The notes under the pieces are model-generated. The model did not search any database, had not been told where the DNA came from, and saw nothing but the letters and a program-made list of their open reading frames with translations. Positions 425-45,823 of a stretch of DNA of 64,000 nucleotides are shown here, piece after piece (the stretch's first letter is position 1; the number at the start of each line of letters is the position of its first letter). The position numbers and the translations under genes were made by a program. The DNA comes from Naegleria gruberi. Its lineage: Eukaryota. The stretch lies in NCBI GenBank assembly GCA_000004985.1, contig GG738869.1; one strand, written 5' to 3'.

Positions 425-667
425 TGATGGAAGGGAAGATCCAACTTGATGACCAAGAGATGATACATCTACCAATCCAATCCAATTACATTATTAAAGC
501 TATCCTAATTTCCAATTAATTTTGCAACTTGGTGGAAGTGAGTGCCAAAGGCACCACACCTCCACCATTATAATAACTTCCAAATAAATATTATTCCAAT
601 TCCGAAACATCATCTTCCAAATAATTCCAATCAATATATATTTTTAAAATTATTATGAAACAACTCC

Positions 668-737
668 TGATGATATGATGATATGATGATATGATGATAT
701 GATGATGATATGATGATATGATGAGATGATGAGATGA
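668..737. repeat. Subtelomeric 8-bp microsatellite (ATGATATG)n degenerating to (GATGAGAT)
   Basis: Direct reading shows tgatgatatgatgatatgatgatatgatgatgatatgatgatatgatgagatgatgagatgac. The 66-aa ORF at 631-831 is an artefact of this repeat. Confidence 0.8.
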
Positions 738-949
738 CTGAATGAGGAAGAGGAGACATTACAACATTTTTTTTGTATGTTACTTTTCCAACCGACAATT
801 TAAGAGCGTCCGCACTCTCACCTCCATACAACCAAGCCAGAATGAATCAACTCTCTTTAATTACAGCAAGGATTTCCAACAAGAATAATTAAATATTTAA
901 TCGGTGATAATTCAATAATTACTTAGTAAAATCCAAAAGTTGAAACACC

Positions 950-6923: not shown

Positions 6924-8887
6924 ATCAAATCAAGTGGTAATAGAGTACACAGAGCTGGCATTAAACGAATTGCAATAGCACACAAGCGTACATTCCTGGA
7001 TAAATTATTATCTAAAAACTTGTAAACTTTTGGGTTTTTCATCAAAGCTCGCTCAATAAAATTCATATCTTTTTTCAAATAATCAGCATATTCAAAATTC
7101 TTCTTACTAAATGAGAGAGACTGCAGTATTATAGCTTCATTGTTTCTGATAATATCTGGTTGAGTTTCTAACCAATCACGTTTGATTATTAAATGATTCA
7201 AAATATCTGATTCAAAAATAAAAGGTGGAGGGTTTTCCCACAAAGAAATATCCAATCCCACAGTGGTACGTTCTACCTGTCGTTTTGAAAGGATATCTTT
7301 CACGAACCACTTGCTATTCAAATTCTGTTGTGGAATAGTGTTCTTAATTGTACCAGGAGTAAGAAAATCCTTCATACAACACATGACCATGAGAATATCT
7401 TTGTCTTTCTTCAATCTATCAGATGCAAATTCAAATGCATAGGGGTTTAGAGACGTGGCTTTCAGAACAATGTCCTTGTCATTTCGTAATTCTTCAGAAG
7501 CAAACTGAAGAGCAAGTGGACTAAACTCCATTGCTTTAGAAACCAATTCTTTGTCTGATCTCAGAGTTGGAGAGGCAAACTTGAGTGTATCATGATATAT
7601 TTCCAAAGCTATTTCAATAATTTGCTTATTATTATTGAAATGTTTAACTAATTTTGCATCTCTAATTAAAACTCTTCTCAATAACTTTCGATCGTATACT
7701 AAGCCATTATCGGAACCAATAAAATCAATTACTTTTGGATTCTTAAGAATAGACAAGTAACAAACAAGTTGATTATTTTTCAACTGATTTGAAATGTATC
7801 TGAATGAGCTAGCATTATTTTGAATGGCAGAAAATACTACGTTCACATCATTTCTGTAAGAGTATTGCAAATACTTGAGAAGATTTCCATGTTCAGAAAC
7901 CATACCAATAATTTCCTTTTTGCTTGCTTCCTTCCTTAAATAGTAAACTGCTCTCACTAAATTAATTTCCTTCTTTTGTAAATATTTAATATCCTCCCTG
8001 ATTTCGTTTGCAAAATTATTTCTTAAATTAATATCATAAGCCATCATCCATTCACTCAAATACTTCAGTATTTCATATTCATCAGCATTAGTTGATTTGT
8101 GCAGACCAACCAAATTTCTAATACTGACCCCAAGTGCATACACATCAGAGGCCAATGAATAACGCGTATGAATGAGCTCGTATCTTGCTTCATTTGAAAT
8201 TTCAGGCGCTAAAAAACCATCAGTTTTACCAGTTACTGGTTTTTGGTTAACAATTGAATCATCTTGTGTCTTGAATGAGTATCCAAAATCTGCTACTTTT
8301 ACATGAATGAATTCGTTATCTAATTCTTTCACTAAAATATTTCCCAACTTGATATCTCCATGAACCATTTTATGGATATCACAAATGAAAATCAGTGCAT
8401 TCATAACCTGAAATAAAATTTGTACAGCTAGTACATTTCCAACAACATGACTCCTTTTTAAATCTATCAAGGAACCATGTTCAGCATATTCCATTTCTAG
8501 ACAAGGAATATTTCTCAATGTTCTATATTCAATTGTTCTAATAACATTATCATGGTTTAGTCTGAGTGCATGATTGGCTTCTATTGAACCAAGTTCTGAT
8601 CGAATTAAATTTATCTTCCACACAGTGCTCTTGTCATTTCTTGTAAATTTATAAATTGCACCTTGTCCTCCTTTTCCCAATACTTTCACTACAACTCCTT
8701 TATCAATAAAATGCAACAACTTGTCAATTTCTTCTTGTGGTATTTGTTCTGTTTTCTGTTGGAAATCTTCTGCAAAAAGAATACTTTCGGAATCGTTAAA
8801 ACGTTGCTCCTTTGGATTGTTTGTGAATTGTGAGGTTGTGCATTGACTAGCGGTATTCTTTGATAGCTCTTTTCTCTTTTTTACCAT
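6887..8887 (-). CDS. Ser/Thr protein kinase domain followed by DUF4116-like repeats
   Basis: 666-aa ORF. It has a glycine loop (LGKGGQGAIYKF), a catalytic loop (HGDIKLGNILV), DFG (VADFGYS) and APE (FLAPE). The C-terminal repeats read KFASPTLRSDKELVSKA / QFASEELRNDKDIVLKA / EFASDRLKKDKDILM. Confidence 0.8.
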   Translation of the reverse strand: MVKKRKELSKNTASQCTTSQFTNNPKEQRFNDSESILFAEDFQQKTEQIPQEEIDKLLHFIDKGVVVKVLGKGGQGAIYKFTRNDKSTVWKINLIRSELGSIEANHALRLNHDNVIRTIEYRTLRNIPCLEMEYAEHGSLIDLKRSHVVGNVLAVQILFQVMNALIFICDIHKMVHGDIKLGNILVKELDNEFIHVKVADFGYSFKTQDDSIVNQKPVTGKTDGFLAPEISNEARYELIHTRYSLASDVYALGVSIRNLVGLHKSTNADEYEILKYLSEWMMAYDINLRNNFANEIREDIKYLQKKEINLVRAVYYLRKEASKKEIIGMVSEHGNLLKYLQYSYRNDVNVVFSAIQNNASSFRYISNQLKNNQLVCYLSILKNPKVIDFIGSDNGLVYDRKLLRRVLIRDAKLVKHFNNNKQIIEIALEIYHDTLKFASPTLRSDKELVSKAMEFSPLALQFASEELRNDKDIVLKATSLNPYAFEFASDRLKKDKDILMVMCCMKDFLTPGTIKNTIPQQNLNSKWFVKDILSKRQVERTTVGLDISLWENPPPFIFESDILNHLIIKRDWLETQPDIIRNNEAIILQSLSFSKKNFEYADYLKKDMNFIERALMKNPKVYKFLDNNLSRNVRLCAIAIRLMPALCTLLPLDLIWYQILKFLESL

Positions 8888-25729: not shown

Positions 25730-28700
25730 TTAAGCAAATGGAGCCCAACAAACAACACCTAGAGTGGTAGTTGTAGCAGCAGCTGTAGTCCACCACTTGT
25801 TAGTTGGAGCAGTGTAAACATAGTTAGCATAAACAACAGGACCAGAGCTTGAAGTAGCAAGATAATCAGTGAAAGCAGCAGTTGAAGTACCATCATCCCA
25901 AGTACCAGCACCAGAAGTATATGTCATTCCGAGAGGGAAGGTAATTGATTCAGCAGCTGGTAATATTGTTTGAATGAAAGTCTTTTCAGCAGCACTTTGA
26001 ATCATTACGAGTTTGGCATCCGATCTCCAATACTTGCAAATATCAGACATTACACTCTTGGTGTAGCCTGAAACAAACTTGGTGTAAATATAACAACGAC
26101 CAAGAGTGGCACTACAAGCAGTCTTACGAGCTGCACTATTTTCAACATAGGCTGGTGGTTGTGGATTGTATGGAGCAATAACACTGGCTGGACCCTTAAT
26201 GGTACCAGTAGCATATTGTGAATCTCCGAAAACACCAAAGGAAATGGAATCTTCTGTTACATCACCTTCAACAGTCAATGAGTAGGTAAAGCTTGAACCC
26301 TTAGCAATTGTGTAGACTCCTGGAGCACTTTCAAAGGAGAAACTGTCCTTGTTGGTAATTGGTTCTACACCTAGATAGACAGGGAAGTATGGATTGTAAT
26401 TATAGAAGGCATCTTGATTATAACCAGAGGCCATAGCCAAAGAGAACTTCTTGACACCACTTGGAGCACTTGATGCAACAGCAACTGTGTAATTGAATTG
26501 AGATCTGACCCAATTGGTAGACAAAATATTCTTGATAACAGATGTAGTCTTTCCCTTATAAGTGACAGTCATACCACTGTTTGCAAGTGGAACCAAAGTC
26601 TTGGTTTGGGAAGATGTGACTGTGTTACATGAGTTATCTACAACCAATTGGTAGACATTGGCAAGATTATTCCAATCGACATAGAGTGGATTGTTGGTAT
26701 CATAGTTCATTCTTTGAATTTGAACTTTACCCAAAGCACTTGTCAAACCAACACCAATACCAATAGCTAATTGTCTCCAATTCCAAATACCAGTACCAGC
26801 ATACTTGCTAACTTCAGCATTTGTGGAAACACCAGGAGACCAGGAATTAAGATCTGCTGATCTCAAAGTAGCTTCAGAACATGGATTACATCTACTACGA
26901 GAATCATTCCAAAGGCAGTTTGAGCAGTTCATTCCAGGGAATCTGTTTGATTTACAATAATTTGGAACAGAACCATATCTGAGAGGGTTGGCAGAGAAGG
27001 AGCTAGTACATCCACTACAACTACAAGGTTCTGTGGATTCACCGTCAGTTACGTGAATAATCATCTTGTTTACGATACTCTTTCTACCATAGCTTACCAT
27101 TTGGTCAATAGCAGCATTAATACCAGCAATTGAACCAGTTCCTGACTTTAATTGGGAAGCAGAGCTAATCTTGGACAAGACAACATCAACACTAGTACCA
27201 CTGTTAACTTGGAGGTGAGTAGTAATGCTTGAGGCAAACTGAATGATACCAATGTTTGTTCCAGTTGGTGAGATGTTGGAACCGAATCCCCTAGTAACGT
27301 TACCCATAAAGCTCTTCATCTTGATCCAATTTTCATCAGAAATAGAACCACTACCATCGAGGACAAAGATAATGTCCATATCAAGAGAACAAGTACAACT
27401 GGTGTATTGAACTGTTACAGTAGCACTTGATGAAGTACCATCTTGATCAGAAACAATAGTATATTCGAATTGGATAGAATCACAACTGTTGGCAACTGGT
27501 TTCACTCTAATAACTTGACTATTAGCAGGATCGTTTGGATTCAAAATAGTTGGAGTACCACTGGCACAATATCCAGTTGGACATGAGATACTAGCAAACT
27601 TGAAAGTACCACCAAGAGAATCATAATCGTTCGACAACAAGGTACTAACAGAAATGTCAACTTGGGCATTATACTTGGTAGAAACTACGTCATTGACAGC
27701 GATTGGAGGAGAAGCAAGAGGAGTAATAGTAATATTTGCAGAAACAGTAACTGGAGCATCAACATCACTATCGCTAACACCAACAATGAACCAACAAGAT
27801 GAACCAACAAAGGTTGTTTGTCTGAGGAAGCTAATCTTATTGGAGACAACAGAGATTGAAGAAACCAGAGTAGAAGTACAGGTACCTGTGTTTGTAATTG
27901 AAGTAAGCTTTAACTTGTCAGCAGTGTCAGCATCATAAGCATTAGAAACAGCCAAATAGTCAATAGTTTGTGCAACGTTGGTAGCTCTGCTTACAGAGTA
28001 AATATGGTTATAACTTGGAGCAACTGGAGCAGTATTTGGTTGATTTACGATAATCTTACAAGAAACTGTTTGACCAGCAGTATTAGAATAAGAATAAGTA
28101 GCATAACAGTTATCATTGATGCAGGAACGAGTACTATCTGCAGTATAAGTCCACTTGCTTGAAACCTTTGCAATTGTACCAACCTTAAGATTTGCAGTAG
28201 AGACAAGATTGATAGAGGCTGGTTCTGAGCCAGAAACCTTTACGAGAGCCAATCTCAAAGAATCTTCGAATTGATTAGCAGCATCATTCTTAGTGGCAGA
28301 AATGTAATAGTCGATACAGTTGAGAGCTGAACCAACAATGTTGATTGTATAAATGTAAGATGTTGTGAGTTGACCGTCTGTGAGGTAAACGTAGAATTGT
28401 TGGGTACCAATGAAAGAATTTGCATAAGTAAACTTGACTGATCCGTCAGTGTTCAAAACTACAGATGTACCAGAATTTTGATTTGGCAAGAGAGCAACTG
28501 AGGCAACAGTGACAGAATCACCATCAGCATCACTAGCACCAACCAAGAGATTGTTCAAGATTGTTGTTGGATTTGAGTAATTTCTAGTAACATTGGCAGT
28601 CTTGGAAGTACCTTGTGGTGGAGTATTGGTAATTGTAACAGAAACTTGTCCTGAAGTACTGAGTGGACCATCAGTACAAGAATAAGAGAAGGAATCAGAG

Positions 28701-31700
28701 ACAGTGTAAGCAGATCCATCACTTGGTGTGTTGGTGTAGGTGATAGAGGTAGATGGTTGATATGTAAAACTACCCAAAGAAGAATCAGTAACAACAACAC
28801 TTCCCAATGAACCTTGAGTAACACCAGAAAATGTGAGAGGATCACTGTTTGGATCAGAACACTTTGAAAGAATATTAGTGAATGAGGCAACATTTCTCCA
28901 CAAAACAGTAGCTGAAGTTGATTGAGCAGATGGAGCATCATTTGTATAAGTAATAGTTACAGTAACAAAGCTTGAAGTAGTAACTGAATCACTAATAGCA
29001 TACTTGAAAGTATCAACACCAGCTCCAAGAGCAGAATTATCCTTGTAGGTAACACTCTTCTTATCAGCACTTAATGTGAGAGAGGCAGATCTAGTAGATG
29101 AAACACTATCAATACTGCTAATGTAAATATCATCACCATTGGTATCGACATCATTAGCAAGTAAATTGAGAACAAGAGTCTTATTTCTCCAGTGTGTTGA
29201 GTAAGTATCAGCAACAGCAACTGGAGCAGTGTTAGTGAGTGCAATAGAGACAGTTTGGGTGACAGTTTGAGCGCCATCTGTAATCTTGAATTGGAATGAG
29301 GTAGAAAGAACTTGATTAGCAGGAGGAACAAACTTTACAACACCACTACTGACAGCAGTGAGAGTACCAACAGCTGGTTGAGAATAGTATGACACAGAGA
29401 GACTATCACCATCAGCATCCCTGGCATCAGCTAGCAAATTAATATTGAAACCAGATTGGACATTTCTCCAATGATTACTAAATGTTTGATCGCTTGATGT
29501 TGGAGCATAATTTTGGAGATTAATAGTTACAGTTTGAGTTGCTGAGCTATCAAGACCATCTGAAACAGAATAAGTGAAAGTTTGTTGAACCAAGTTGCCA
29601 GTTGGGTTGACAAAAGTAAAGGTCTTCTTATCACCTGAAAGAGTGAGTGTGCCAACAGATGGAGTTGTGAAAGCATTAACAGTCAATTTGGTAGTATCAG
29701 CCGAGTCACTATCGGTTGGTTTAAGAGCATCAGTTCTATCAATAATTGGAATTGTAATAGTATAGTTACTAAAGTGGACAGTAAGAGGAATATTATAAGC
29801 AACAGGAATACTATTACTAATTACAATTGGGAATGTAGCACTAGAGGCAGTCCAACCGTCAGTGAAAGCTACTGTGAATGTATCAGTTCCCTTCCATGGA
29901 GAAGTTAACTTGTAGGTAACTGTATTGGATGACCCAAGAACAACGGTACCTTGATTACCATTCTTTGTGATGGAAGTAACATTAACAGCATCATTTTCAG
30001 CGTCAGTGAATCTGGAATTCAAATTAATTGTTGCTGTAGTGTCATAAACAGCTCTCCAATGATAATTGAAAGCTTGAGTATCAACGGATGGAACAGTGTT
30101 GATAACAGTGACTGAAATGGTTCCAGAAACTGTTTCCTTGCCATCAGATACAATGAAAGTAACAGTATCAACCTTTCCTACAAATCCACTAGTTGGAGTG
30201 TAAATGATATTACCACCACTCTTAACAATAGTACCTTGAACAGCAGGAATGGTACTAAAGCTTGAAATAGTGAGAGAATCACCATTACTATCACTTGAAC
30301 CACCAATAACATTGAAAGTAACACCAGACTTGGCAACCTTCCAAACAACGCTTGAAGTATAACTAGTGGTTGTTGGTTTACTATTGGTTACAAGAATGAA
30401 AATCTTACCAGTGGTTGTGGTAACACCATCAGAGATAACATATGTCAAAGTATCATTACCAAGAGGAGCAGTATTTGGATAGTAAACAATCTTATTGCCA
30501 CTAATGATTGGAGCTTGTGTTGCCAAAGAACCATAAACTGAACTAATAGTGAGTGGATCACTTTCAGCATCAACATCATTGGCCAAGGCATCAATAACAA
30601 TAGAAGCAGTATTCCAGTGAACAGAGAGATAATCACTGTTAGCAACTGGAGCAGTATTAGTAACTTTGAGTGTAACAGTATTACTAACATCACCATTTGA
30701 GGCACCATCAGTAACTACATAACGGAAAGAGGTTGTACCAGTAAAGGTAGAACCTGGTGCAGAAATAGTTACAGAAGTGGTATCCTTTCTTTGAACAGTT
30801 CCTGATGCAAGTTCATTAACAACAGACTTTAAGGAGATTGGATCAGAGTTTGGATCAGCATCAGCTGTTGCCAAGGCAAGGACATTCAAATCAAAGCTTC
30901 TATAATTTCTCCAAGTAATTTCATATGATTTAGCAGAAACAACAGGAGGAGTATTAGTAACTTGAACAGTGAAAGAAGCAGTAGCATTCTTCAATCCATC
31001 AGATACAATATATGTTGCTTGAACTGTACCAATTGTTGAGGTTGGTGTGTAGGTGGCAACATTTGAAGCAATTGAGAGAGAACCAACTGGAACACTACCA
31101 GGATAGGTTGTCAAATAACCACTATCGGCACTATCCGCATCAGCAATTAATGGACCAAGATTGACAGTAGCAGTATTTCTCCAGTGAACTGGAGTAGAAG
31201 CAGCTTGAGCAGTTGGAGCGTTATCATAGACGTTCATATAGAAAGTGAGAGAACTGGTACCTGCACCATTATTATATGAAAATACGAATTTTTCTTCACC
31301 AGTAAAACCAACAGCAGGTTTGTAATTGAAATTCTTCAAGTCATCCAAAACATTTACAGTACCTCCCTTGTTTGGAGCAACGTTCAAAATCTTGTTCAAT
31401 TCAAGAGTACCGTATGAAGTGATATTATCAAAAGCATAGAAATCTTGTCCTACCAAACTCTTTCTCCAGTGAACATCAAAGTATTTTTCTTCAGCAGATG
31501 GAACAACACTTCTAATATCTACAGTTACAGTAGCAACAGCTGACTTAATCAAACCGTCATAAATTTGATAAGTAAAAGTATCAATACCAGTTTGAGTAAC
31601 CAAAGCAGGAGATGGGAAGTACTTGATCTTCTTATTGGAACTATCAATGGTAACAGCACCAGAACCAAATCTTGTTGATGCACCAACATTACTGACAACC

Positions 31701-34700
31701 AAATATGCAGAATCATCAGTATCAGAATCAGTTGCCAAACTAACAGCCTCAATAGTAATACCTGTTTGAACATTAGCACCATAGTATGTAACTGAAATAT
31801 CAGCAGCAGTTGGTGGGTTGTTGTATGAGGTTGTAGTTAAGGTCTTTGTAGAGCTATCCAAACCATCGGTCAATGTAGCAGTACAAACAGCAGTTCCAGT
31901 AAAGCTTGAAGAAGCAAAATTGACAACTTTAACAGCTCCAGATGCAACTGTAGAACAACCAGTACCTGTAACAGAGAGAGTGAGACTGTCACCATCACCA
32001 TCGGTTGGAGTATTGTAAACATTATAAGTAACACCACTAGCAGCAGTTCTCCAGTGAACAGTTTGAACTTGAGCATCAATGTTTGGTACATTGTTATTTG
32101 TAACTGTAACAAAAACAGTGGCAGTATTTGAGTTCAAAGCACCATCAGTAGCCTTATAAGTGAATTGATTAACACCAGTAGTAGGAGAAGAACCAAGGGT
32201 ATATCTAATAAGATTATTATTCTTTTCAATGGTACCTTTGGCAGGTTGAGTGAAAGTATCAACTGAGAGGGTATCAGAATCAGCATCAACATCATTAGCC
32301 AAAACATTAATGTCGATATTAGTAGATTTCCAGTGAACAGAGATGGTATCATTACTTGCAACAGGAGCATTATCCTTAATAGTTACATAAACAGTAGATG
32401 TACCTTGCGAAATACCATCAGTAATAGTGTAGGTGAATGAATCAGAACCAACAAATCCTTTAGTTGGAGTATAGATAGCTTTGCCGTTAGATTTTAAGGT
32501 TGAACCAGAGGTAGCTGAGGAAACAGATTGAAGACTGATAGAATCAGAATCAGCATCTGTGCATCCAGACAAAACATCAATAGTAATACCAGTTGACCAT
32601 ACGGACCAGTGAGCTTCAATATTCTTAACTGTTGCTGTTGGAGCAGTATTCTTAACAGAGACAACAAATGTACCTGTCTTACTAACCCAACCATCAGTGA
32701 ATTTAGCAGTGAAAGAGGAATCACCCAAAACTGGGCTATCTGGAAGAGTCCAATTAACCTTATCGGAAGAAATACTTGGAGTACCATAAGTAGTAGCACC
32801 AGTAGTCAAACTGAATGTAATAGCATCATTATCAGCATCAGTTACTGCAGATAAAACATCAATCAAGGTAGATTTTTGAGTCCAATGAATATTGGTTGGG
32901 AAGACTGTAACAACAGGATCGTTATTCAAAATGTTAATAGTCCAGTCAACTGATTTAGTCAACAAACCATCAGTGAAAGTAATAGTAACAATACTTGCAC
33001 CAGTATAACCTTGTTGACCAACAAAAGTAACCATATTACCAGAGAAAGTTGCAGAGCCACCAACATTAACAGAAACTGTCTTGACAGTTACAGTGTCTTC
33101 ATTGTCAGCGTCATTAGCACCACACATTACGACAGCATCACGAGTATAACCAGAAACAACTACGTCAAAGTGCTTGTTTTCAGTAACAGCATTAGCAGTT
33201 GGTGCTTGATCATAGACATTAAGATTGACTTGAACTTGAGAAGTACTAGCACCATCAGTAATGGTTACATTGAATGTATCAGCGCCCAAATAATTGTTTT
33301 GTTGAGTGTATTTGACATTTGGAATTGTAGAAGCATCACCGTTATTGATAGCAACTGAACCCTTAGAAGGAGTTGAAGTTGAAAGAATTGAGAGAGAATC
33401 TCCATCAGCATCGAGCGGTTGAGGAGTAGAGAACATATCAATAGTGGTACCACCAGTTTTTTGAGTAGACCAGTGAATATTCTTATTAATGACTTGATCT
33501 TGAGGAACATTATTATTGGTAACAATAAGTGTAACAGATGAAGAAGCACTCTTGGTAACATCATCGGTAGCAATATAGGTAATTTCTTGCGTACCAACAG
33601 ATGCAGCAACAGGAGAAAAGACAATAGCCTTTCTTTGAGCATCAATAGAAACTGATCCCTTGAAATCAGCAGCTTTGCTAACAGTATCAACAAAGAGAGC
33701 ATCATTGTTTGGATCCTTATCGTTTGCCAAAACATTCAATTGGTTATCACTTGACTTCCAGTGGAAAGTATAAGAGTCAGCAACTGGAAGAGGAGCATCA
33801 TTTCTAAGAGTGACAACAACATTGGCAACAGTTTCCTTTCCATAGTCAGAAACAGTGTATGTGAAAGTTGTTTCACCAGAATACTTTTCAGATGACTTGG
33901 ATGTGAAAACAAGAGCATCAGTACCATCAGCAAGTTGAGTACGAGTAACAACACCCTTTGATGGTTGAGTGAAGCTAGCAATATGAAGTGGGTCAGAATC
34001 AGCATCAACATCATTTGACAATACATTAATAGTAACTGAAGCATCATTCCAGTGAACAGAAGCAGTATCATCAACAGGAGCTGGAGCAGCATTAGTAACT
34101 TGCACAGTGACTGTTCCTTGATTTGATTCATCTAAGCCATCAGTAGTAGTGTAAGTAAATGTAGTGGTACCAGTGAAACCATTGTTTGGTTTAAAGAGAA
34201 CCTTTTTACCACCTTCAAAACTGGAAACTTGACCAGCAGTTGGTTGAGTCAATGTCTTGATAACCAAAGTATCATAATCACCTGGATTGATATCTTGGTC
34301 ATTATTCAAAACTTCAATAACAACACTTCTATTCCAAGATACAGACACAGCATCATTGTTAGCAATAGGAGCATCATTGACAACATTAACAGTGACAGTA
34401 GCATAATTAGAGAGAGCACCTTCATCATCAACAATAGAATAAGTAAAGGTGTCAACATATGTTTGGTTGAGAGCAGCATAGGTAACAAATCTGTTATTTG
34501 GTGAAATGTCAACAGTAATACCTTGAGTAGAAACAGTTGCAAGATCATATTGAATAGCATCACTATTTGGATCATAATCATTACTGATCAATTCAAATTT
34601 ACCAACTAAACCCTTAGAAACTTTAACAATATCGTCAACAGCAACAGGAGCGATATTTTTAACACCAACAATCAAATAACCAGTTACAGTGAAAATGCCT

Positions 34701-36285
34701 GTAGTTGATCCATCCTTGTTAGAATTTTTAACCTTGTATGGAGCAACATCGGTACCAGTGAAATCAGCTGGAGGAGTATAAGTCACATTCTTATCATCAA
34801 TCTTCTTGATCTTACCACCATTTTCAGTGGACAATTCATCAAAATCGAGCAAGAGATAATCATTGGAAGCACTATAATCATTAGCAACAACATCAACAGT
34901 GATTGGAACATTCTTATCGCACAAAACAGTATCATTAACAGCAACTGGAGCGACAGGAATAACATTAATAGTAACAGTACTTGTTACTGTATCAATATCA
35001 TCAGTAATTCTAAGCTTGAAAGATTCACTATAAATTACACCATCTTCAGGAGTGTAAACCATGGTATAACTATTCTTTTTAACATTGTAAAAATCTTGGG
35101 TTGGATAATTGACTTGAGTAATTGTGGATTGTTCCAAGAATTGGAAGGTACCACGAGTTGGCTTGGTCAACAAGGAAACGGTAACAGTATCTAACATATC
35201 AGCATCAGTGTATGTCAAATCCAATTGGTTATCCTTTGAATTCTTTGGAACATTGAGAATTCTATCAGCATTATTTGGTGGAGTATTGACAACTTTCAAG
35301 AAAACATAACTGCTTGAAGTAGTTGGACCATCAGTAATTGTATATTCAAAGGCATCAGTCAAAGCTTCAACCTTTGCAGGTGGAATGTAACTGAGATAGG
35401 TAGCATCTGAGGAAGTGATAACAGTACCAGCACTACCAGTACCAGATGTTGATGCAACAATAGTAATATTATCACCATTAATATCATAATCATTTTCCAT
35501 AACTCTGAGGATAGTCTTGGCATTCTTTGGAACAGTGTAAGTATCTGGATCAGCAACAGGTGGATCATTTTCAACATTAATAGTAATGAGAGCACTAACA
35601 ATAGCATTACCATCAGAAACGGTATAGTTGAATTGATCTTGAGCATTGAAACCATATTTTGGAGTGTAGTATACATATTTAGTGTCAAAAGTAACAACAG
35701 CTTCTGGAACTTGAGAAGCTGTAATACCAACAACAGTCAATTCGTCATTATCTGGATCAGTAATGAAAGCACCGTTATCAGTAACATAAGCAAAAATGTC
35801 AATACTGTTCTTTTTGCTATTCTTACTAACAGTGAGTGTAATATCAACCAATTCAGGTGGACGATTCAAAACTTCTACATGAACATTTGCTGAAGAAATC
35901 ATATAACCATTAGTTACATAATATTGGAAGGTTTCATTTCCAGCAAAAGAGCCTTTTGAAGTATAAACTAGTGTCTTACCATCCTTCAAAGAAACTGTAC
36001 CAGAAGTAGGTTGAGTAACGTTAACGAGAGTTAAATTCAATGATTTTGGATCAGCATCGTTAAGAAGTGGATATATTGTGATTGGGTAACGTTTGTAGAC
36101 TTGAATATAATCCTATTAGTTGTGGGTATTCAGAAAGTTGACATTTAGACATGCATGAATATAATGATGATAAACACAACAAATTCGAAATACTATGAAT
36201 TACTTACGTCTTTTGCGTCAGGAGCAGAGACTCCAGCAGAGACTGTAACCATGACAATAGTAACAACAACACTCGCAACAACCAT
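25730..36285 (-). CDS. Giant secreted adhesin-like protein (about 3,480 aa): signal peptide, about 25-30 tandem cadherin-like/Ig-like (VCBS-type) repeats, vWA domain, C-type lectin-like domain
   Basis: Exon 1 is 36218-36285 (MVVASVVVTIVMVTVSAGVSAPDAKD, hydrophobic signal). A 105-nt intron at 36113-36217 follows (GTAAGT...AATAG). Exon 2 is 25730-36112, a 10.4-kb uninterrupted ORF ending at TAA. About 100-aa repeats carry PVAxxD / VLxNDxDxxxDxL / TYTxxDG motifs. The vWA reads DIIFVLDGSGSIS...IHVTDGEST (MIDAS DxSxS). The C-terminal region has CTLD-like Cys/Trp spacing (CSATLGRCYIYTK...WDDG...VVCWAPFA). Confidence 0.8.
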
Positions 36286-38075: not shown

Positions 38076-38408
38076 GTGAATTCATTATTTGAGTCTGGTG
38101 ACAATATTGATCTAATATTCAAAATAAATACCACAGCTCCAAATAATATAATATCCACTCAAACTTGCAACTCTTTCATCAAATCCATGCTCATTAATTG
38201 CTTGAACTCGTTAATGAGAAGTAACAAACAATCCATCTCCCCTATTCCAAGAGCTGTTGACAGAGACCAGTTTTTTGAGTTTAAAGTGGTGTCTGAACAA
38301 CAACTTGATTAATAATTTAAAGGACATTGACAGTTTGTTTTTATTAAGATATACAGAGAGAAGGTAGAGAGAAGAACAGTGAAAAGGGAAATGAGAAATT
38401 CAAAAAGT

Positions 38409-39783
38409 TTACAAAATCATGCATTTGCCACCAGTCTTCTTTGCTGATTTGTTATCTTGCTTGAATCTTTCAGGATGCAAAACAACAGTGATGGCCAAAT
38501 TGAAACATTCCTTCAAACCAACTTGTGTCTTGGCCGAACATTCACAGTAAGAAATACAGTTGACTTCCTTTGACATTTGTTCACCCATTTCCTTAGTTAT
38601 TGGTGTAAGACCTTGTTCTTTCAATTTCTTTAAAGTGGCATCGTGTTCTCTCATGTCAACCTTCAAACCACACAAAATAATTGGAACAGCTGGACAGTGC
38701 TTACGCAATTCTGGAATCCAACGATCCTTAATGTTAGTGAATGATGATGGTTGAACAACTGAGAAACAAGCAATGAAAATTTCTGTATCTGGATAAGACA
38801 ATGGTCTCAAACGACTATTTTCAATTGTTCATCATCATTAAAATTATTAAATCAAATGGATAGAGTTAATTCACAACATTTAATATTAATATAGTAGAGA
38901 GATGGTGTAGTGTGTTAATAGTGAAGAAGAGGTGTCAAACAAATTATTATTAGAATCAAGTATGAAACTATTCGAATATTATTATTCTAAAACTTACTCA
39001 TAACTGTAAAATGTTGAAGGTTGTTAATATAATGAATAGAAATATAATACATACTCTTCTTGACCAGCTGTATCCCACAAACCTAATGACACTGTATGAT
39101 TTTCATACATGACATTGGCACAATAGTTATCAAAAACAGTTGGAACATATTCTAAAGTGGTGTTATTAGAAAGTCGTCATATTTTAAAAGCATGGTAATT
39201 AAAAGGATATCAGAAATTGATAGTATCATAACAAGATGAAGTGTAGGACTATGCATAAACAAGAAATTGTTTGTTAGAAACTTACCAGTTGGGAAGGAAT
39301 CAGTACTGTAACTAATTAACATGGAAGTTTTACCGACAGCACCATCACCTATAGTGGAAAATAATTATTTGTTATTAGAATGGTTGTTGTTGTTGTTTTG
39401 ATGGTTAGTCATAAGGTTTAGTTGTTTAAAGTGGAAAGTGGTTGATGGTGGTTTGATGTTTAGTTTACATTAATCATGATTGTGTTTTAGAGGTGAAAGA
39501 ATATTCGTTATGAATGTGAAAGATTATCGCGAAAGTCATGGATAGGGTTGAAATTGTTGTTGTTGTGGTTAGAAAGTGTAGAAATTTAACCAGAAAGTGT
39601 ACGAAACAATATTCGAAAAGGATCAAGTAAGAGAAAGCATCAAGTAATAATGATGGAAAGAAGAAGAAAATTTGTTATCATAATCAGATGGTAGAATTAA
39701 AAAATTCGAAACAAAACGGAATAATTAGAAACTAGACTAAACTTTTACATACCAACAACTACACATTTAATATTAGTATCCAT
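38409..39783 (-). CDS. Rac-like Rho-family small GTPase with CaaX box, 5 exons including a 6-nt micro-exon
   Basis: Exons are 39753-39783 ([11 protein letters not shown]), 39286-39348, 39055-39151, 38998-39003 (TTATGA) and 38409-38814. Introns are 404, 134, 51 and 183 nt with GTATGT/GTAAGT 5' sites. The spliced product reads [79 protein letters not shown]...KCMIL. The 6-nt exon supplies the conserved DYD. Confidence 0.75.
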
Positions 39784-40136
39784 TCTTTATATACAAAATC
39801 TATAGACAAAACTTTAATGATGGATTTGTTTCTATGTACGTACTCTCGAGAAAAAATCTAAGAGGGGTAGATTCGGTTTATTTTTTCTAGCTTGATTGCT
39901 GCCAAAAGTCAGAAGGTAACTGAGAACTAAAGGAATGATGTGTGATGGCCAGACGTGCGAACATTGAACTATAAAGTAATGGAAAAAAAGAAGGTATTCT
40001 ATTGAGGAAGGAACTGTGAAATGAAGAATATTACAAATTTCCATGAAGGCGTACAAATCCCTCATAAATGGGTGCGTCAACGAAAAACATCAGTCTGATT
40101 CCTCAATATCCATTAAGGTTCTCAAACTAATGTGCT

Positions 40137-40207
40137 CGTCTCGTGGTGTAATGGTAGCATAGTGGACTTTGAATCCATTGACGGAGGTTCGATTCCTCCC
40201 GAGACGG
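40137..40207 (+). tRNA. tRNA-Gln (anticodon TTG)
   Basis: CGTCTCG-TG-GTGT-AATGGTA-GCAT-A-GTGGA-CTTTGAA-TCCAT-TGAC-GGAGG-TTCGATT-CCTCC-CGAGACG-G. Acceptor stem is a perfect 7 bp. T-loop is the canonical TTCGATT. It closely resembles eukaryotic cytoplasmic tRNA-Gln. Confidence 0.9.
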
Positions 40208-40451
40208 TAACGTGGCGAGCCATTGAATTTTATTTTGAATAAATTTGGAATATTGAAGAGAAACCTTATTTGAAACTTTTTTATTTGAAAACATTAGAAG
40301 AAGGAAGCAGTTTGTTTGTTAAAACAATAACAAATTTCGAGATTAAAAATCTTCAAATATATTATGAATAATCTCCAATTGCTTAAAAACATCTCTTTCT
40401 TAATATTTTGACCTGTCAACCATCAATGATTGGCAACTATAAGAAAAAAAA

Positions 40452-41554
40452 ATGTCATCTTCTGGTTATGATTTAATTGCCATTCCTTTGGAAACAATTA
40501 TTGTGAGTGGGGATTTTCCCAAAAGGCTTTCCCTGCAAAGTGATTCCTCTTATAGATTAATCAAAAAGTTCAAGATTTGAGAGAAAGATTCGAACAGTTT
40601 CTTTCAACTGATGAACTATTAGAATCTCTCCATTGCAATCAACAGAAATTGTTGTTTCTTGACTATTTCTACGATTGTAAAAGAAAGAAAGCCATCAAAT
40701 TTAAAGATTATTCCTCACTCTTTCAAGTTTGTAATTGTTTTCTGGGTGAAATTATTGCCAAGTCAAAGGAACAAATTTTGATTAATGACTTGACAGGTAG
40801 GAATTCATTTCTAGCTCAGTTTAATTCAATAGTGGATGAAAATCCTTCATTATTTCCGATATGTAAGAATGTGGAGGTTTATTCTTGGTTTTCAAAACAA
40901 TCAGAATTGAGTAGAAATAGAGAAGGTGATGTAATTCTAGAAGAATCGAATAATGGTATTGGAAATGAGGAAGATGATGTGTTGGAAATGCTAATTCTCA
41001 CATTTAATTATCATTTCAAAGCTTTATTCTATTTCTTTCAGAAGGTAGATTCAAAATTCATTCTAAATTGGACGAAAGAAAGTTTGAGTTCATTACCAAA
41101 GTTTATTCTAGACGAATTGAAAGTGAAACACGAAACTCGTCAATCCTTCAAAGAATTACTTGTCTACAAGGAGGAAGAACTCAATAACAGTACAATCCTG
41201 GATGCAGACTTTGAATTTCTGAATTTCCTCGCAATGAACACAAGTGATTGGAAAGCAAGAACCAAACTGTCAAATGCAAGTAATTGTCACATTTACTCGT
41301 CAAAGGAAAAATACATGGCAACTCCCAGAACAACCATTTACAAATTTGTCTATACAGTGGATAAGACTATTGAAGAATTTTCAAAAGCTTTCCTTTCGTA
41401 TGATTTCTCTGGAGAAAAGATGGTTATTAGTTCGTACTGGAGTTATGACCCAATGAATATTAATCATTCCTCAAAGAAATATTCAATTGTTAAGGGTGAA
41501 TTAGTTTTCAATCCAAACATTCCTCTAATTTCCAAACGAAGATCAGATGATTGA
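40452..41554 (+). CDS. Hypothetical protein (about 350 aa), 2 exons, no recognised domain
   Basis: Exon 1 is 40452-40502 (MSSSGYDLIAIPLETII). A 53-nt intron at 40503-40555 follows (GTGAGT...TTATAG). Exon 2 is 40556-41554, in frame with ORF 40577-41554. Confidence 0.5.
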
Positions 41555-41679
41555 TGTGGAGGAATTGATTTCGAATAAAGTTTGCTAAGAAAAAAAGATT
41601 GAAAGCTAAATTGAGATGTTGATTTGCTCTTGCAAATGCTGAATATCCAATGATCGAGGCTAAGAACAAAAAATCAGAT

Positions 41680-41752
41680 ACCGACAATGGGGCTCGAACC
41701 CACGACCCCAGGATTAGAAGTCCTGTGCTCTATCCAACTGAGCTATGACGGC
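41680..41752 (-). tRNA. tRNA-Arg (anticodon TCT)
   Basis: The reverse complement is GCCGTCA-TA-GCTC-AGTTGGATA-GAGC-A-CAGGA-CTTCTAA-TCCTG-GGGTC-GTGGG-TTCGAGC-CCCAT-TGTCGGT-A. D, anticodon and T arms are good. The acceptor stem has one U:U mismatch (5:68) and G1:U72, so it may be weakly functional or degenerate. Confidence 0.65.
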
Positions 41753-41821
41753 TTACATTCAATATGAAAAATATTCCCTTTTTATAAAATTGTCTAGTAT
41801 GTACCTGGCAAGTTCCTCCTT

Positions 41822-42751
41822 GTGTTCACAAATGTCAAAAAAGTCAACAAACAAAAAATGTCAAAACCTGTCCACACATTGATTGTTTCGTTGTTTCTTG
41901 TCATCATACTTTCATTTTTGACAGCATCATCCACTGCAAAATCTTATGCAATTACTTCACTTTCTTCAGAAGTTCACATTACAAATGGTGCTTGTACTTT
42001 GGACGTGGTCGAAACTTTCGAATACGAATTTACTGGTTCCTATTCAACTATTGGAAGAGCTTTCGCTTCTAATATTGATAACGTCAACAATATTGCAGTT
42101 GTTACACTCACATCTGGTTATAGTATTTCAACTTATTTTGATAGTACTGGTTATATTATCATGTATTTGAGTCCAGCAACTCCAGAATCAGGAACAACAA
42201 TGGTTTCGTTCCAACTGTCGTATACTGTAATAGGAAGACAAAATCTATTTGCCAGTTCTGCATCAGCTTCAAAGAATACTGTTTCGTTCTATTACAAGGA
42301 TAGTGCAATGATTAGAAATTTGACCTCTACTTTTATATTCGATTCGAATATTGGATTCACCAGTGCACCAACTTCAAGTGGTCAACTCATCACTAATGGA
42401 AATCAATATTCAGTCTTATTTTCAGTTCAAAATCTCACCAGTCTATACGTTCCAACAGTTTACTTTAATCCAAATTCAGACAATTTTAATTTGTGTCCAT
42501 TAACAGTTGGTGGAGTGGTAGGAATAGTTATTGGATCTGTGGCTGGAGCCATCATTCTTACACTAATATTTGCATTCATATTAATTAAGGGTAAATCAGG
42601 TGGAGGAGGAGGTGTTGGCAGTGGAACTTCCCACTGGACAGGAAATAATCATCATCATCATAACCATTCTCATACTGGTTATGGATATAGTGGTGGAGGA
42701 GGTGGAGGTGGTGATAGTGGTCACACTGGAGGTTCAGGATTTGCAAATTAA
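41822..42751 (+). CDS. Type I single-pass membrane protein with Gly/His-rich cytoplasmic tail (309 aa)
   Basis: Signal-like N-terminus from the second Met at 41858 (MSKPVHTLIVSLFLVIILSFLTASSTA). Ser/Thr-rich ectodomain. TM helix VGGVVGIVIGSVAGAIILTLIFAFILI. Tail reads GGGGGVGSG...NNHHHHNHSHTGYGYSGGGGGGGDSGHTGG. Confidence 0.6.
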   Translation: MFTNVKKVNKQKMSKPVHTLIVSLFLVIILSFLTASSTAKSYAITSLSSEVHITNGACTLDVVETFEYEFTGSYSTIGRAFASNIDNVNNIAVVTLTSGYSISTYFDSTGYIIMYLSPATPESGTTMVSFQLSYTVIGRQNLFASSASASKNTVSFYYKDSAMIRNLTSTFIFDSNIGFTSAPTSSGQLITNGNQYSVLFSVQNLTSLYVPTVYFNPNSDNFNLCPLTVGGVVGIVIGSVAGAIILTLIFAFILIKGKSGGGGGVGSGTSHWTGNNHHHHNHSHTGYGYSGGGGGGGDSGHTGGSGFAN

Positions 42752-42892: not shown

Positions 42893-44641
42893 GTGGAGTT
42901 TGTTAGGAGTTGTTTAAAAAAAATGTCTTCAAGAGTTTGCACAGCTTTTGGTCGACTTATTTCCACGCCATCATCACCATCATCACTATCATCACGATCA
43001 TCAAGAAGGAAAATTAATTCATCCTTCTTCATGTTATTATTAAATTATTTCCTTCTCATAATTTCTCTCGTTTTCTTCATCACATCAACCTCCAATTTAA
43101 TACTTGCCAAATCATCATCATCAATAATTACATCATCATCATCGGTGCAATTTAGTAGTAGTAGAATTAAAAATCATGATGTGAAGGATCCACCAAATTT
43201 TAATATTTGTCAATCAGAGGTTTCGAATCAGGTCAAGGATATGCTTTCTAATTTTCCAGCAACTTTTGGTATTCAAGTAATGGTTAATCAAACCATTGAG
43301 TTGTTTTCTTATAATCCAGATCCATTTCTTCAACCTGCTTCTAATAACAAATTATTGACAACTATTGCTGCATTGAATCATTTGGGAAGTAAATTTCGTT
43401 TCTCCACTGATTTCTTCTATGATTATAAGAATAGAAGAGTTGTTGTGAGACCAAAGGGAGATCCAACATTAACATTTGAGCAATTGCAAAAATCATTAAT
43501 GAATGTTTTGGAAAAGGTCACTTCAATGAATCCTCATGAAATTGTTGTGGATGCTAGTTTTTTCAATCCAATTCCATTTACAAATGGTGGAGATGATGAG
43601 GAATTTCCAGATTCATGGGAATGGGGAAATTTACAATATTCATTTAGTTCAGTACCAAGTGCCTTATCTTTGGAACATAATACTTTAACATTTACTGTTA
43701 AAGGTGGAGAGGTTGCTGGTCAAGGATTGAGTATTGTTTTGGATGAACCATTTCAATCATTTGCAAAGGATTTCTTTGAATTTGATACTAGTTTGAGTAG
43801 AACTTTGGATTGTTCAAATGCTAATATTATCAGTAAGGAAAGTGTCACCTCTTATTATAAACCTTTAGATAATAAGATTATTGTTAGAGGTCAATTGTGT
43901 GCAAAGAAGGAATCCAAGCAAACATTGACTGTTTTGGATACTTATGGATTTTTCTTACAAGCAGTTTCAAGTGCTAGCGCCTCTTCAAATGGTCCAAAAT
44001 CTGTTAAAATTGATTATTTGAGTGAGGAGGAACGTTCCTCCATGTTTGAATTCAAAGAGGAATGCGTCTACTCTGATAATATTCTCACAGTTATGAATAC
44101 TACACTTCAAGAGAGTGATAACATGTATGCAGAATTATTCTTGAGACAATTGGGAACTTTCATTAAGGCAAATAGTAGTTTGGACGTTTTTCCATCCATC
44201 ACCACAAGAGGAATTCAAGTTGTTAAGGATATTTTGACAAGTCAATTCAACTTGTCACCATTCACATTCTTCCAAAATGATGGATCTGGACTTTCTCGTC
44301 ACAATCTCATTTCTCCTCGTTCTCTAGTCGATGCATTGAGTGCAATCTATTACAAGGGAGCAGGTGGAGTCAGTGGTGAAACATTTGTCTCCTTATTACC
44401 TCTCGGAGGAAGGAGTGGAACTCTCAGGAATAGATTTGTTGATTTCCCAGGTATTGTGAGTGCTAAAACTGGAAGCTTGGATGGAGTTAGTTCTTTGAGT
44501 GGATATATTAGAAATGCCAATTATAGAGATCCAATTGTTTTTTCAATTATTGTTAATCAGTGTCCACTCTCTGCCAAGGAAATGCATCAAATTATTGATT
44601 CCATTGTTACCTTGTTTGCATTCATGAATCCAAAATGCTAA
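42893..44641 (+). CDS. D-alanyl-D-alanine carboxypeptidase/endopeptidase (PBP4, peptidase S13) homologue, intronless, with Ser-rich N-terminal extension and hydrophobic anchor
   Basis: All three PBP4 active-site motifs are present with PBP4-specific context: SxxK (QPASNNKLLTTIAALNHLGSKFRFST, cf. E. coli DacB PASTQKVITALAAL), S-x-N (DGSGLSRHNLISPRSLVDAL) and KTG (AKTGSLDGVSSLSGYI). The N-terminus MSSRVCTAFGRLISTPSSPSSLSSRSSRRK plus FFMLLLNYFLLIISLVFFITS is eukaryote-style. Codon usage and AT content match neighbouring intron-containing genes. Confidence 0.8.
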   Translation: MEFVRSCLKKMSSRVCTAFGRLISTPSSPSSLSSRSSRRKINSSFFMLLLNYFLLIISLVFFITSTSNLILAKSSSSIITSSSSVQFSSSRIKNHDVKDPPNFNICQSEVSNQVKDMLSNFPATFGIQVMVNQTIELFSYNPDPFLQPASNNKLLTTIAALNHLGSKFRFSTDFFYDYKNRRVVVRPKGDPTLTFEQLQKSLMNVLEKVTSMNPHEIVVDASFFNPIPFTNGGDDEEFPDSWEWGNLQYSFSSVPSALSLEHNTLTFTVKGGEVAGQGLSIVLDEPFQSFAKDFFEFDTSLSRTLDCSNANIISKESVTSYYKPLDNKIIVRGQLCAKKESKQTLTVLDTYGFFLQAVSSASASSNGPKSVKIDYLSEEERSSMFEFKEECVYSDNILTVMNTTLQESDNMYAELFLRQLGTFIKANSSLDVFPSITTRGIQVVKDILTSQFNLSPFTFFQNDGSGLSRHNLISPRSLVDALSAIYYKGAGGVSGETFVSLLPLGGRSGTLRNRFVDFPGIVSAKTGSLDGVSSLSGYIRNANYRDPIVFSIIVNQCPLSAKEMHQIIDSIVTLFAFMNPKC

Positions 44642-44881: not shown

Positions 44882-45823
44882 TTATTGGTCTTTCTTTGCT
44901 TGTTTCTTCTTTTCAGAATGTTCCTCAAAATGAATGCTTGTTCTAAATATTCTGTCCATCACACCATACCAAGTTCCGTAATTATCTTGATAGTGAGAAT
45001 GGTGATAGGCATGTTCATTAGTCAACCACTTGAAAGGATTCAATTTGAAATCGAAACCTGAATGCACATAAGATGTCTCCATCATCTTGAAAACAATCCA
45101 CAAACAATACCAAAACAAGTGTACTCTCAATAAGCTTGGTCCAGATAGAACAGGAATTACATTACCAAACAAGTATTCAACTGGATGAGCATACACACAT
45201 CCAACGCTGACTGTATATCTCAATTCATGATGAAGAGAGTGAACATGTTTGTAGAGGAATGGTACCTTGTGAAGAAGGTAATGAGAACCAAAGAATAAAA
45301 CTTCATCCATGGCCATGAAAATACTCCAATAAATAATAATCTTTGGAATCCAATACCATCCAAAATCTGCCATCAAGCTCTCATACGAACTTTCGTGGAT
45401 TGTGGCCATGACTGATGAATTGAGAATAGTCATTGGAAGTGACATGAAGAAATGAATTTTTGAACAGAATATTAAAATCTTCCAGTAGAATGTTGGATCA
45501 AGAGGAGAATGTGACGGATTGATCAGGAATTTATCCATCCAAGAAATGTATCTTTTCGATAAGGTACTGCAAGTGTTTTCTCTGACCTTTAAAAATTGGT
45601 ATGCAATGAATGGAGCATTAAAAATCCAATAAGTCAACCACTGTGCCAGAAATGGATACACACCATAAACGATCCAAGTTGGTTGGTCCTCTACTGCATG
45701 TTTCCAAAACCTCTCTGTGAAGGAAGTGCTACTGATGTTTGTATGGTCATACGAAGACGACATGACGAAGAAATAGAAAGTGGACGAATAGACGTGGTTT
45801 GTTTTTTTTCTGTTGTCTAACAT
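44882..45823 (-). CDS. Fatty acid hydroxylase superfamily protein (sterol desaturase / methylsterol oxidase-like), 313 aa
   Basis: Histidine boxes HYLLHKVPFLYKHVHSLHHE and NEHAYHHSHYQ. Multiple TM segments. Confidence 0.75.
   Translation of the reverse strand: MLDNRKKTNHVYSSTFYFFVMSSSYDHTNISSTSFTERFWKHAVEDQPTWIVYGVYPFLAQWLTYWIFNAPFIAYQFLKVRENTCSTLSKRYISWMDKFLINPSHSPLDPTFYWKILIFCSKIHFFMSLPMTILNSSVMATIHESSYESLMADFGWYWIPKIIIYWSIFMAMDEVLFFGSHYLLHKVPFLYKHVHSLHHELRYTVSVGCVYAHPVEYLFGNVIPVLSGPSLLRVHLFWYCLWIVFKMMETSYVHSGFDFKLNPFKWLTNEHAYHHSHYQDNYGTWYGVMDRIFRTSIHFEEHSEKKKQAKKDQ

Follow-up and report, generated by a model that had tools for sequence, protein, structure and literature searches.

Penicillin-binding proteins (PBPs) outside bacteria have a described precedent in social amoebae. 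The Dictyostelium genome papers listed the peptidase S13 gene pscA (DDB_G0271902) among candidate bacterial transfers, and the D. discoideum gene encodes an active, penicillin-sensitive carboxypeptidase. A study of Bacillus subtilis PBP4a drew attention to this functional class C1 PBP in D. discoideum, "which phagocytes bacteria", and suggested that such enzymes are weapons or serve in the recycling of bacterial walls (PMC4604126). Among predatory bacteria, secreted PBP4 homologues of Bdellovibrio attack the peptidoglycan of the prey (PMC3276566). Here, we describe a gene of the same family in the amoeba Naegleria gruberi. It lies in a stretch of 64,000 nucleotides of contig GG738869.1 (GenBank assembly GCA_000004985.1), hereafter the window, from whose first letter all positions are counted. 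A sequence-only reading of this DNA had proposed a bacterial-type PBP4 gene, possibly transferred horizontally, on the premise that PBP4 homologues are essentially bacterial, which overlooks the published pscA. In the literature, searches for Naegleria together with D-Ala-D-Ala carboxypeptidase or with penicillin-binding protein turned up no study of the gene. We put at roughly 0.7 the probability that it is a member of an old family of eukaryotic class C1 PBPs, of cyanobacterial-type origin, and encodes a secretory DD-peptidase acting on bacterial prey.

The PBP4-like open reading frame (ORF) was confirmed, as listed, at window positions 42893..44641 on the plus strand. The GTG at 42893 is a product of the ORF-listing convention only and carries no evidence of a start. 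The first ATG lies at 42923, in the context aaaaaaaATG, and a second one follows in frame:

42923..44641, plus strand: PBP4-like coding sequence (peptidase S13, class C1 PBP), a single exon of 572 amino acids from the first ATG, with the stop codon TAA at 44639-44641
43031..43033, plus strand: second in-frame ATG (M37), giving a 536-amino acid protein with the classical signal peptide MLLLNYFLLIISLVFFITSTSNLILA

Starting at M37, the length would be near that of the two Naegleria orthologues (522 and 516 amino acids). The predicted N. gruberi protein P0001, from a 747-kb scaffold, is 100% identical to the protein of the window. Its public model has 453 amino acids and begins at M120, and therefore leaves out N-terminal sequence that is conserved in the orthologues.

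Against the Pfam profile Peptidase_S13 (PF02113), a search that the sequence-only reading had proposed, the protein scored 195.8 bits (E=1.4e-57; cut-off 22.8 bits), with a match spanning profile positions 18-440 of 444. Motifs were assigned by residue-by-residue alignment with Escherichia coli PBP4 (structure 2ex2), as follows:

43340..43351, plus strand: SxxK motif, S140-N-N-K143, with the nucleophilic Ser and the Lys; PASNNK aligns with PASTQK of E. coli (S62-T-Q-K65)
44114..44122, plus strand: SxN motif, S398-D-N400, the true second catalytic motif; QESDNMYAE aligns with KKSDNMIAD of E. coli
44465..44473, plus strand: KTG motif, K515-T-G517; SAKTGSL aligns with SAKTGSL of E. coli (K417-T-G)
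44279..44317, plus strand: DGSGLSRHNLISP, a conserved motif of the S13 family, whose E. coli counterpart is DGSGLSRHNLIAP

By this alignment all three catalytic motifs are present, as had been claimed, with one correction: DGSGLSRHNLISP, previously counted among the active-site motifs, is a family motif, and the SxN function falls to S398-D-N400. The catalytic motifs are conserved in every group of sequences compared (the eukaryotic clade described below, cyanobacteria and other bacteria), and the DGSGLSRHN motif is also retained in N. gruberi. An AlphaFold2 model of the protein (predicted local distance difference test, pLDDT, 82.4; predicted template modelling score, pTM, 0.77) shows residues 1-32 and 65-88 as disordered and a helix at 33-64. 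It could be superposed on E. coli PBP4 (2ex2), Actinomadura R39 (1w79) and B. subtilis PBP4a (1w5d) over 485-507 aligned columns, with target-normalised template modelling (TM) scores of 0.77-0.82. Since these matches are to full-length PBP4s, the three-domain architecture of class C1 is predicted to be retained, and in the model domains II and III appear inserted in the penicillin-binding domain, as in PBP4. Taken together, the data support a PBP4-type (S13, class C1) penicillin-binding protein of bacterial ancestry.

The gene is a genuine part of the Naegleria nuclear genome. Orthologues in N. fowleri and N. lovaniensis, on contigs of 814 kb and 716 kb respectively, are 60-63% identical to the N. 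gruberi protein and 87% identical to each other; UniRef names them D-alanyl-D-alanine carboxypeptidase and NCBI "hypothetical protein". All three species carry the gene as a single exon, in agreement with the intronless structure reported before, and in all three its upstream neighbour is the same GTPase gene with four exon blocks, which bears out the earlier mention of intron-containing eukaryotic neighbours:

38397..39783, minus strand: intron-containing Ras/Arf-like GTPase gene, with exon blocks at about 38397-38790, 39047-39157, 39284-39352 and 39751-39783

Gene order is conserved on the upstream side only: in N. fowleri and N. lovaniensis, the place downstream of the PBP4 gene is not taken by the FA_hydroxylase gene that follows it in N. 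gruberi. The similarity in codon usage between the gene and its neighbours was also upheld. Compared with 13 other long ORFs of the window, its GC content at third codon positions (GC3) is 0.25 (range of the long ORFs, 0.23-0.40), and the correlation of its relative synonymous codon usage (RSCU) with theirs is 0.89 (range in the window, 0.74-0.95). Between N. fowleri and N. lovaniensis, nonsynonymous over synonymous divergence (dN/dS) is 0.079/0.67, about 0.12. A metagenomic relative, P0004, is 51% identical to the N. gruberi protein, and its gene is flanked by genes for a DHHC palmitoyltransferase and a WH1+PBD (WASP-like) protein. The P0004 gene has gained a 38-nt intron, GTAAGT...TAG (L003 3143-3180), immediately before the AKTG codons, and a prokaryotic gene caller read across it, which gave P0004 a false C-terminus. 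Bacterial contamination or a chimeric assembly, the artefact that the sequence-only reading had itself warned of, has in its favour only the bacterial affinity of the protein family. It is opposed by the presence of the same locus and the same intron-containing neighbour in three independently assembled Naegleria genomes, by native GC content and codon usage, and by the intron of P0004. We give it virtually no weight, as the synteny already refutes it. Contamination, chimeric assembly and pseudogene status are excluded, and the evidence supports an intact gene integrated in a eukaryotic chromosome and kept under purifying selection.

In a search for homologues with the full-length protein, the Ser-rich N-terminus dominated the result (69 real matches among 8000 candidates), and the mature domain was used as the query instead. 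Repeating the search with a 17-sequence alignment apparently returned the same candidates and added nothing. An exhaustive HMMER scan, covering 1.84 billion representative proteins, returned no close bacterial protein, and none above 35% identity. Its best matches outside the Naegleria group were P0070 and P0071, at 37-40% identity. The affiliation of such relatives was established by cluster look-ups and contig neighbours: a TLC/ceramide-synthase-type gene lies alongside that of P0071, COG7 and RNase H2 subunit C genes alongside that of the related protein P0073, and other contigs of the same clade carry genes found only in eukaryotes, such as a DOCK exchange factor and an Alg9-like mannosyltransferase. 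By name or by contig neighbours, at least 16 members of the clade are eukaryotic. Those with names are the heterolobosean Percolomonas cosmopolitus, the dictyostelids Heterostelium album and Synstelium polycarpum, Pelomyxa schiedti, Thecamonas trahens and Paulinella micropora, together with sequences from MMETSP and EukProt transcriptomes. Nearly all of the best named bacterial matches were cyanobacterial, at no more than 35% identity.

The phylogeny was built by neighbour-joining from 153 sequences, using gamma-corrected maximum-likelihood (ML) distances, a rate matrix derived from Gonnet and 100 bootstraps; under a relaxed criterion, a clade was counted when it held at least 90% of its members and at most two outsiders. 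Naegleria and P0004 grouped in 100% of replicates. A eukaryote-dominated clade of 51 sequences plus P0100 was recovered in 63% of replicates (95% relaxed), and its union with 28 cyanobacterial PBP4 sequences in 69% (96% relaxed); the cyanobacterial sequences alone received 89%. Within the eukaryote-dominated clade, Naegleria fell in a sub-clade with Percolomonas, and the dictyostelids near Pelomyxa, at nodes with support below 50%. Several metagenomic proteins of about 960 amino acids (P0072, P0074, P0075, P0080, P0086, P0102, P0112 and P0165) consist of two complete S13/PBP4 units in tandem, and these group in trees with diverse bacterial sequences.

The link to cyanobacteria is also visible in a pair of cysteines at the two ends of the mature protein:

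43208..43210, plus strand: Cys96, where the mature domain begins, in the conserved "ICxS" motif; half of a pair shared with cyanobacterial PBP4
44636..44638, plus strand: Cys572, the last residue; the other half of the pair common to the cyanobacterial and eukaryotic clades

The N-terminal Cys occurs in 27 of 28 cyanobacterial sequences and in 31 of the 51 from the eukaryotic clade, and was recorded in none of 74 other bacterial sequences, among which a C-terminal Cys was recorded once. Both cysteines are found in 27 of the 28 cyanobacterial sequences and in most eukaryotic ones. This pair is an independent character that agrees with the position of the eukaryotic clade next to cyanobacteria in the tree, and we infer that Cys96 and Cys572 may be joined by a disulfide.

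One part of the active site has changed in Naegleria. The pocket that takes the free end of meso-diaminopimelate in C1 PBPs is formed by residues Asp155 and Gln422 of E. coli PBP4, with D142/S415 at the corresponding positions in R39 and D145/S416 in PBP4a (PMC5054556). The residues found there in N. gruberi are:

43628..43630, plus strand: Asn236, at the position of E. coli PBP4 Asp155; Asn in four of four Naegleria-clade sequences
44480..44482, plus strand: Asp520, at the position of E. coli Gln422 and R39 Ser415; Asp in the Naegleria clade only (four of four)

At the first of these positions Asp is present in 46 of the 47 other eukaryotic-clade sequences, in all 28 cyanobacterial ones and in 49 of 74 from other bacteria, and it is the only family-defining feature among those tested that the Naegleria protein lacks. 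At the second, Ser or Thr is found in 37 of the 47 and in 24 of the 28, respectively. The acidic group of the sub-site thus seems to have been moved and not lost. The Naegleria lineage has remodelled the sub-site that recognises the free end of residue 3, replacing Asp with Asn236 and Ser/Thr with Asp520. This may mean a changed stem-peptide preference compared with canonical PBP4, or a changed substrate.

The N-terminus was another feature emphasized by the sequence-only reading, which described a Ser/Arg-rich extension and a hydrophobic anchor as acquired and typical of eukaryotic targeting. Both elements exist:

42923..43030, plus strand: Ser/Arg-rich extension of 36 amino acids, with no acidic residues, a net charge of +6 and predicted disorder; N. 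gruberi only
43025..43108, plus strand: hydrophobic segment, residues ~35-62, with a Kyte-Doolittle mean of 2.67 over 19 amino acids and a predicted helix at 33-64
43109..43201, plus strand: Ser-rich, low-confidence linker from the signal segment to the catalytic domain, with pLDDT <50 for residues 65-88

The extension is restricted to N. gruberi, being missing from the N. fowleri and N. lovaniensis models. An in-frame stop five codons upstream makes it impossible in N. lovaniensis, and in N. fowleri upstream in-frame ATGs, the only means of reaching one, give at most 14 residues. Hydrophobic N-termini, in turn, are found in the Naegleria orthologues, in other eukaryotic members and in cyanobacterial PBP4. 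Because the hydrophobic signal is shared with the cyanobacterial homologues, it was probably inherited and not acquired. By its composition, the segment is a predicted signal peptide or type II signal anchor: a start at ATG 42923 would produce a signal anchor whose cytosolic tail is positively charged, and a start at ATG 43031 a plain signal peptide. With either, the catalytic domain is predicted to face the lumen. Mammalian LACTB is a PBP-derived protein of the mitochondrial intermembrane space, and the Ser/Arg-rich extension followed by a hydrophobic stop-transfer could in principle be a similar bipartite presequence, given that the first 36 residues, ahead of the hydrophobic helix, are rich in Ser and Arg and free of acidic residues. 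We consider mitochondrial targeting very unlikely, however, in view of the limits on the extension in the other two species, of the plain signal peptides with which the orthologues and all relatives begin, and of the conserved cysteine pair, which would suit an oxidising secretory compartment.

With regard to origin, the transfer is not recent, nor is it confined to Naegleria; it is an old acquisition common to several protist lineages. We propose that the family derives from a cyanobacterial-type PBP4 that would have been acquired long before the Naegleria species split, and that it now has a patchy distribution in bacteria-eating protists (Heterolobosea, dictyostelids, Pelomyxa and Thecamonas), plus Paulinella. 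The idea of horizontal transfer put forward by the sequence-only reading survives as regards bacterial ancestry and eukaryotic integration, but the case is not isolated, not recent and without an identifiable donor (≤35% identity). Where a bacterial donor clade had been expected, the phylogeny returned a eukaryote-dominated clade, close to the outcome that the reading itself had named as speaking against it. A recent transfer into Naegleria alone, from an identifiable bacterial donor clade, would be in line with the absence of introns from the gene in three Naegleria species, with its location near chromosome or contig ends in all of them, and with the purely bacterial set of structurally characterised relatives. 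It is at odds with the identity of at most 35% shown by the best bacterial matches, both among 1.84 billion representative proteins and in the 185,579 prokaryotic genomes scanned. It also conflicts with the 37-40% relatives, which include P0071, on a contig with eukaryote-only genes, and which group with P0073, with fully native codon usage (GC3 and RSCU match the neighbouring genes), with synteny maintained across species about 40% apart at the protein level, and with a placement inside the eukaryote-dominated clade. A recent, Naegleria-specific transfer is therefore largely refuted, and its probability is very small.

More difficult to set aside is a history in which the gene spread from eukaryote to eukaryote, or was acquired several times independently from cyanobacteria-like donors, in place of a single ancient entry followed by loss. 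The distribution across Discoba, Amoebozoa, Apusomonadida and Rhizaria is very patchy, the deep nodes within the eukaryotic clade are below 50%, and the named hosts, as phagotrophs or recent ex-phagotrophs, all ingest bacteria, cyanobacteria among them. Even so, the eukaryotic sequences form one group (95% relaxed) and are not interleaved with those of cyanobacteria, and the heterolobosean and amoebozoan ones tend to cluster by host lineage. We regard such repeated transfer as possible but on balance unlikely. A bolder version of single entry, which we hold to be doubtful, would place it before the split of Discoba, Amoebozoa, Apusomonadida and Rhizaria, near the last eukaryotic common ancestor. 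The gene would then have been kept only in bacteria-eaters, as a dedicated phagosomal cutter of peptidoglycan cross-links, and the Naegleria pocket would have been re-tooled for other prey walls.

As to function, we take a secretory-pathway DD-peptidase that digests the walls of prey bacteria to be the most likely role, one that would resemble the use of secreted PBP4 homologues by Bdellovibrio. The Naegleria protein, soluble or with its N-terminal helix as an anchor, would be translocated into the endoplasmic reticulum and proceed to a secretory or endolysosomal compartment or to the cell surface. In these places it would act as a DD-endopeptidase or DD-carboxypeptidase on the peptidoglycan stem peptides of ingested bacteria, cutting D-Ala-D-Ala ends and 4-3 cross-links and so dismantling the sacculus alongside lysozymes. 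Inhibition by beta-lactams would be expected. A different possibility is that the enzyme is a repurposed serine hydrolase, with an endogenous D-amino-acid-containing or cyst-wall component, or other peptides or esters, as its substrate. The fixation of both sub-site changes in four of four Naegleria-clade sequences would be consistent with such repurposing, and the role of the active Dictyostelium enzyme, which is not established, leaves room for it. Yet the catalytic motifs, the DGSGLSRHN motif and the three-domain fold have all been kept, the sub-site still has an acidic residue, although in another position, and the hosts of the family are bacterivorous. Repurposing appears to us improbable, though not negligible.

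Several points weigh against the proposal of an old, cyanobacterial-type family of prey-digesting enzymes. The phylogeny is by neighbour-joining on ML distances, with exact support of 63-69% and internal eukaryotic nodes below 50%, and was computed without the D. discoideum pscA sequence. Neighbour-joining on Kimura-corrected p-distances put diverse bacteria between the eukaryotic and the cyanobacterial clades; this result was judged to be an effect of saturation or long branches, and those distances were replaced by the ML distances. Most members of the clade are unnamed metagenomic proteins, so that some may be nested bacterial sequences. P0100, beside the clade, is the one possible non-eukaryote there, and a contig neighbour of P0122 with WD40 and decapeptide repeats fits neither a eukaryote nor a bacterium decisively. 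A scan of 185,579 prokaryotic species genomes, in which nearly all of the best 80 loci were cyanobacterial with at most 35% identity, is only supporting evidence, as the alignment used for it contained cyanobacterial sequences. On the functional side, the replacement by Asn of Asp155, the main residue of C1 PBPs for recognising meso-diaminopimelate, means that the substrate in Naegleria may not be canonical peptidoglycan. The localisation and activity of the Naegleria protein are predictions.

The surroundings of the gene deserve a description of their own. Telomere repeats, (CCCAAA)n, occupy window positions 1-949 and are followed by an N gap (region 950-4973), which sets the PBP4 gene about 43 kb from the chromosome end. 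The orthologues also lie near contig ends, at about 18 kb in N. lovaniensis and 29 kb in N. fowleri, which suggests that a subtelomeric position has been conserved among Naegleria species. The gene had been described as lying between a tRNA-Arg gene and a sterol-desaturase-like gene. These do flank it, as tRNA-Arg(TCT) at 41679-41752 (minus strand) on the upstream side and, by Pfam, an FA_hydroxylase gene at 44882-45823 (minus strand) downstream, but a 309-amino acid ORF at 41822-42751 intervenes on the tRNA side. That ORF belongs to a stretch of about 3 kb (40136-42751), present only in N. gruberi, which separates the GTPase gene from the PBP4 gene and contains tRNA-Gln(TTG), a 325-amino acid ORF, tRNA-Arg(TCT) and the 309-amino acid ORF. 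Neither ORF has a Pfam match; the shorter one carries a signal at its N-terminus and a transmembrane segment at its C-terminus, together with a Gly/His-rich tail.

Further away, positions 25730-35902 (minus strand) hold a single ORF of 3390 amino acids built of bacterial-type adhesin repeats, with matches to 21 Big_9 "bacterial Ig", 14 Cadherin_4, 16 Cadherin_5 and one VWA domains. It occupies the stretch of highest GC content in the window (0.38-0.395), and its GC3 (0.23) and RSCU correlation (0.83) are inside the range of the other long ORFs. Situated 7 kb from the PBP4 locus, it resembles Dictyostelium colossin A and appears to be another gene of bacterial descent. Beside the telomere gap, two neighbouring genes with DUF4116 repeats are found at 5619-6806 and 6887-8887 (both minus strand), one of them fused to a protein kinase domain.

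The locus is a clean and well-anchored case of a eukaryote that has retained an enzyme of the bacterial cell wall without having such a wall itself. Dictyostelium PscA had been the one case studied; to it are now added Heterolobosea, among them the pathogen N. fowleri, which has an orthologue. A single eukaryote-dominated clade beside cyanobacterial PBP4, marked by the cysteine pair, turns scattered "HGT candidates" (candidates for horizontal gene transfer) into one testable question, namely whether the gene was acquired once, long ago, in connection with bacterivory. With its altered sub-site, the Naegleria enzyme is a natural experiment in PBP4 substrate specificity. Since beta-lactam binding is predicted, penicillin-type drugs used in amoeba culture could inhibit the Naegleria enzyme.

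Among known systems, housekeeping bacterial class C1 PBPs (PBP4, DacB, of E. coli and Haemophilus influenzae, PBP4a of B. subtilis and R39 of Actinomadura) have the same SxxK, SxN and KTG motifs and likewise a DGSGLSRxN motif, an N-terminal secretion signal and a three-domain fold. The N. gruberi protein is only 22-24% identical to them by structural alignment, and they have Asp at the D155 position and Q422/S415 where Naegleria has Asn236 and Asp520. Unlike these housekeeping enzymes, it cannot remodel a wall of its own, as the host has no peptidoglycan. Among bacteria, the nearest relatives, with 30-35% identity, are cyanobacterial PBP4 proteins, for example those of Microcoleus, Nostoc, Chroococcus and Trichodesmium. 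In common with the Naegleria protein, they have the Cys of an "ICxxxL" motif just after the signal peptide and a Cys at or near the C-terminus, features essentially absent elsewhere in bacteria; they differ in forming a separate clade (89%) of bacterial genes that presumably act on their own wall. Bd3459 and Bd0816 of Bdellovibrio bacteriovorus are DD-endopeptidases, PBP4 homologues secreted by a predator onto the wall of its prey and structural matches to our model (E ~1e-11). They have lost domain III, a loss that opens the active site, whereas the Naegleria protein apparently keeps this domain in the model, where target-normalised TM is about 0.8 to full-length PBP4 versus about 0.55 to Bd3459 and residues ~250-340 form an all-beta region.

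The nearest counterpart in kind is PscA, which, like the Naegleria protein, is an S13/class C1 PBP whose gene resides in the nucleus of an amoeba that feeds on bacteria. The dictyostelid S13 proteins of Heterostelium and Synstelium fall in the same eukaryote-dominated clade as Naegleria, and from the presence there of these two "peptidase S13" proteins we infer that D. discoideum PscA is also a member. The differences are that the host of PscA belongs to Amoebozoa and Naegleria to Discoba, that identity between Naegleria and dictyostelid proteins is about 30%, and that Asp is retained in the sub-site of the dictyostelid sequences, whose C-terminal Cys is missing, in Heterostelium at least. The Naegleria gene is thus a PscA-type eukaryotic C1 PBP, of a kind already known from Dictyostelium, to which the existence of one eukaryote-dominated clade beside cyanobacteria and the remodelling of the sub-site add modestly new points.

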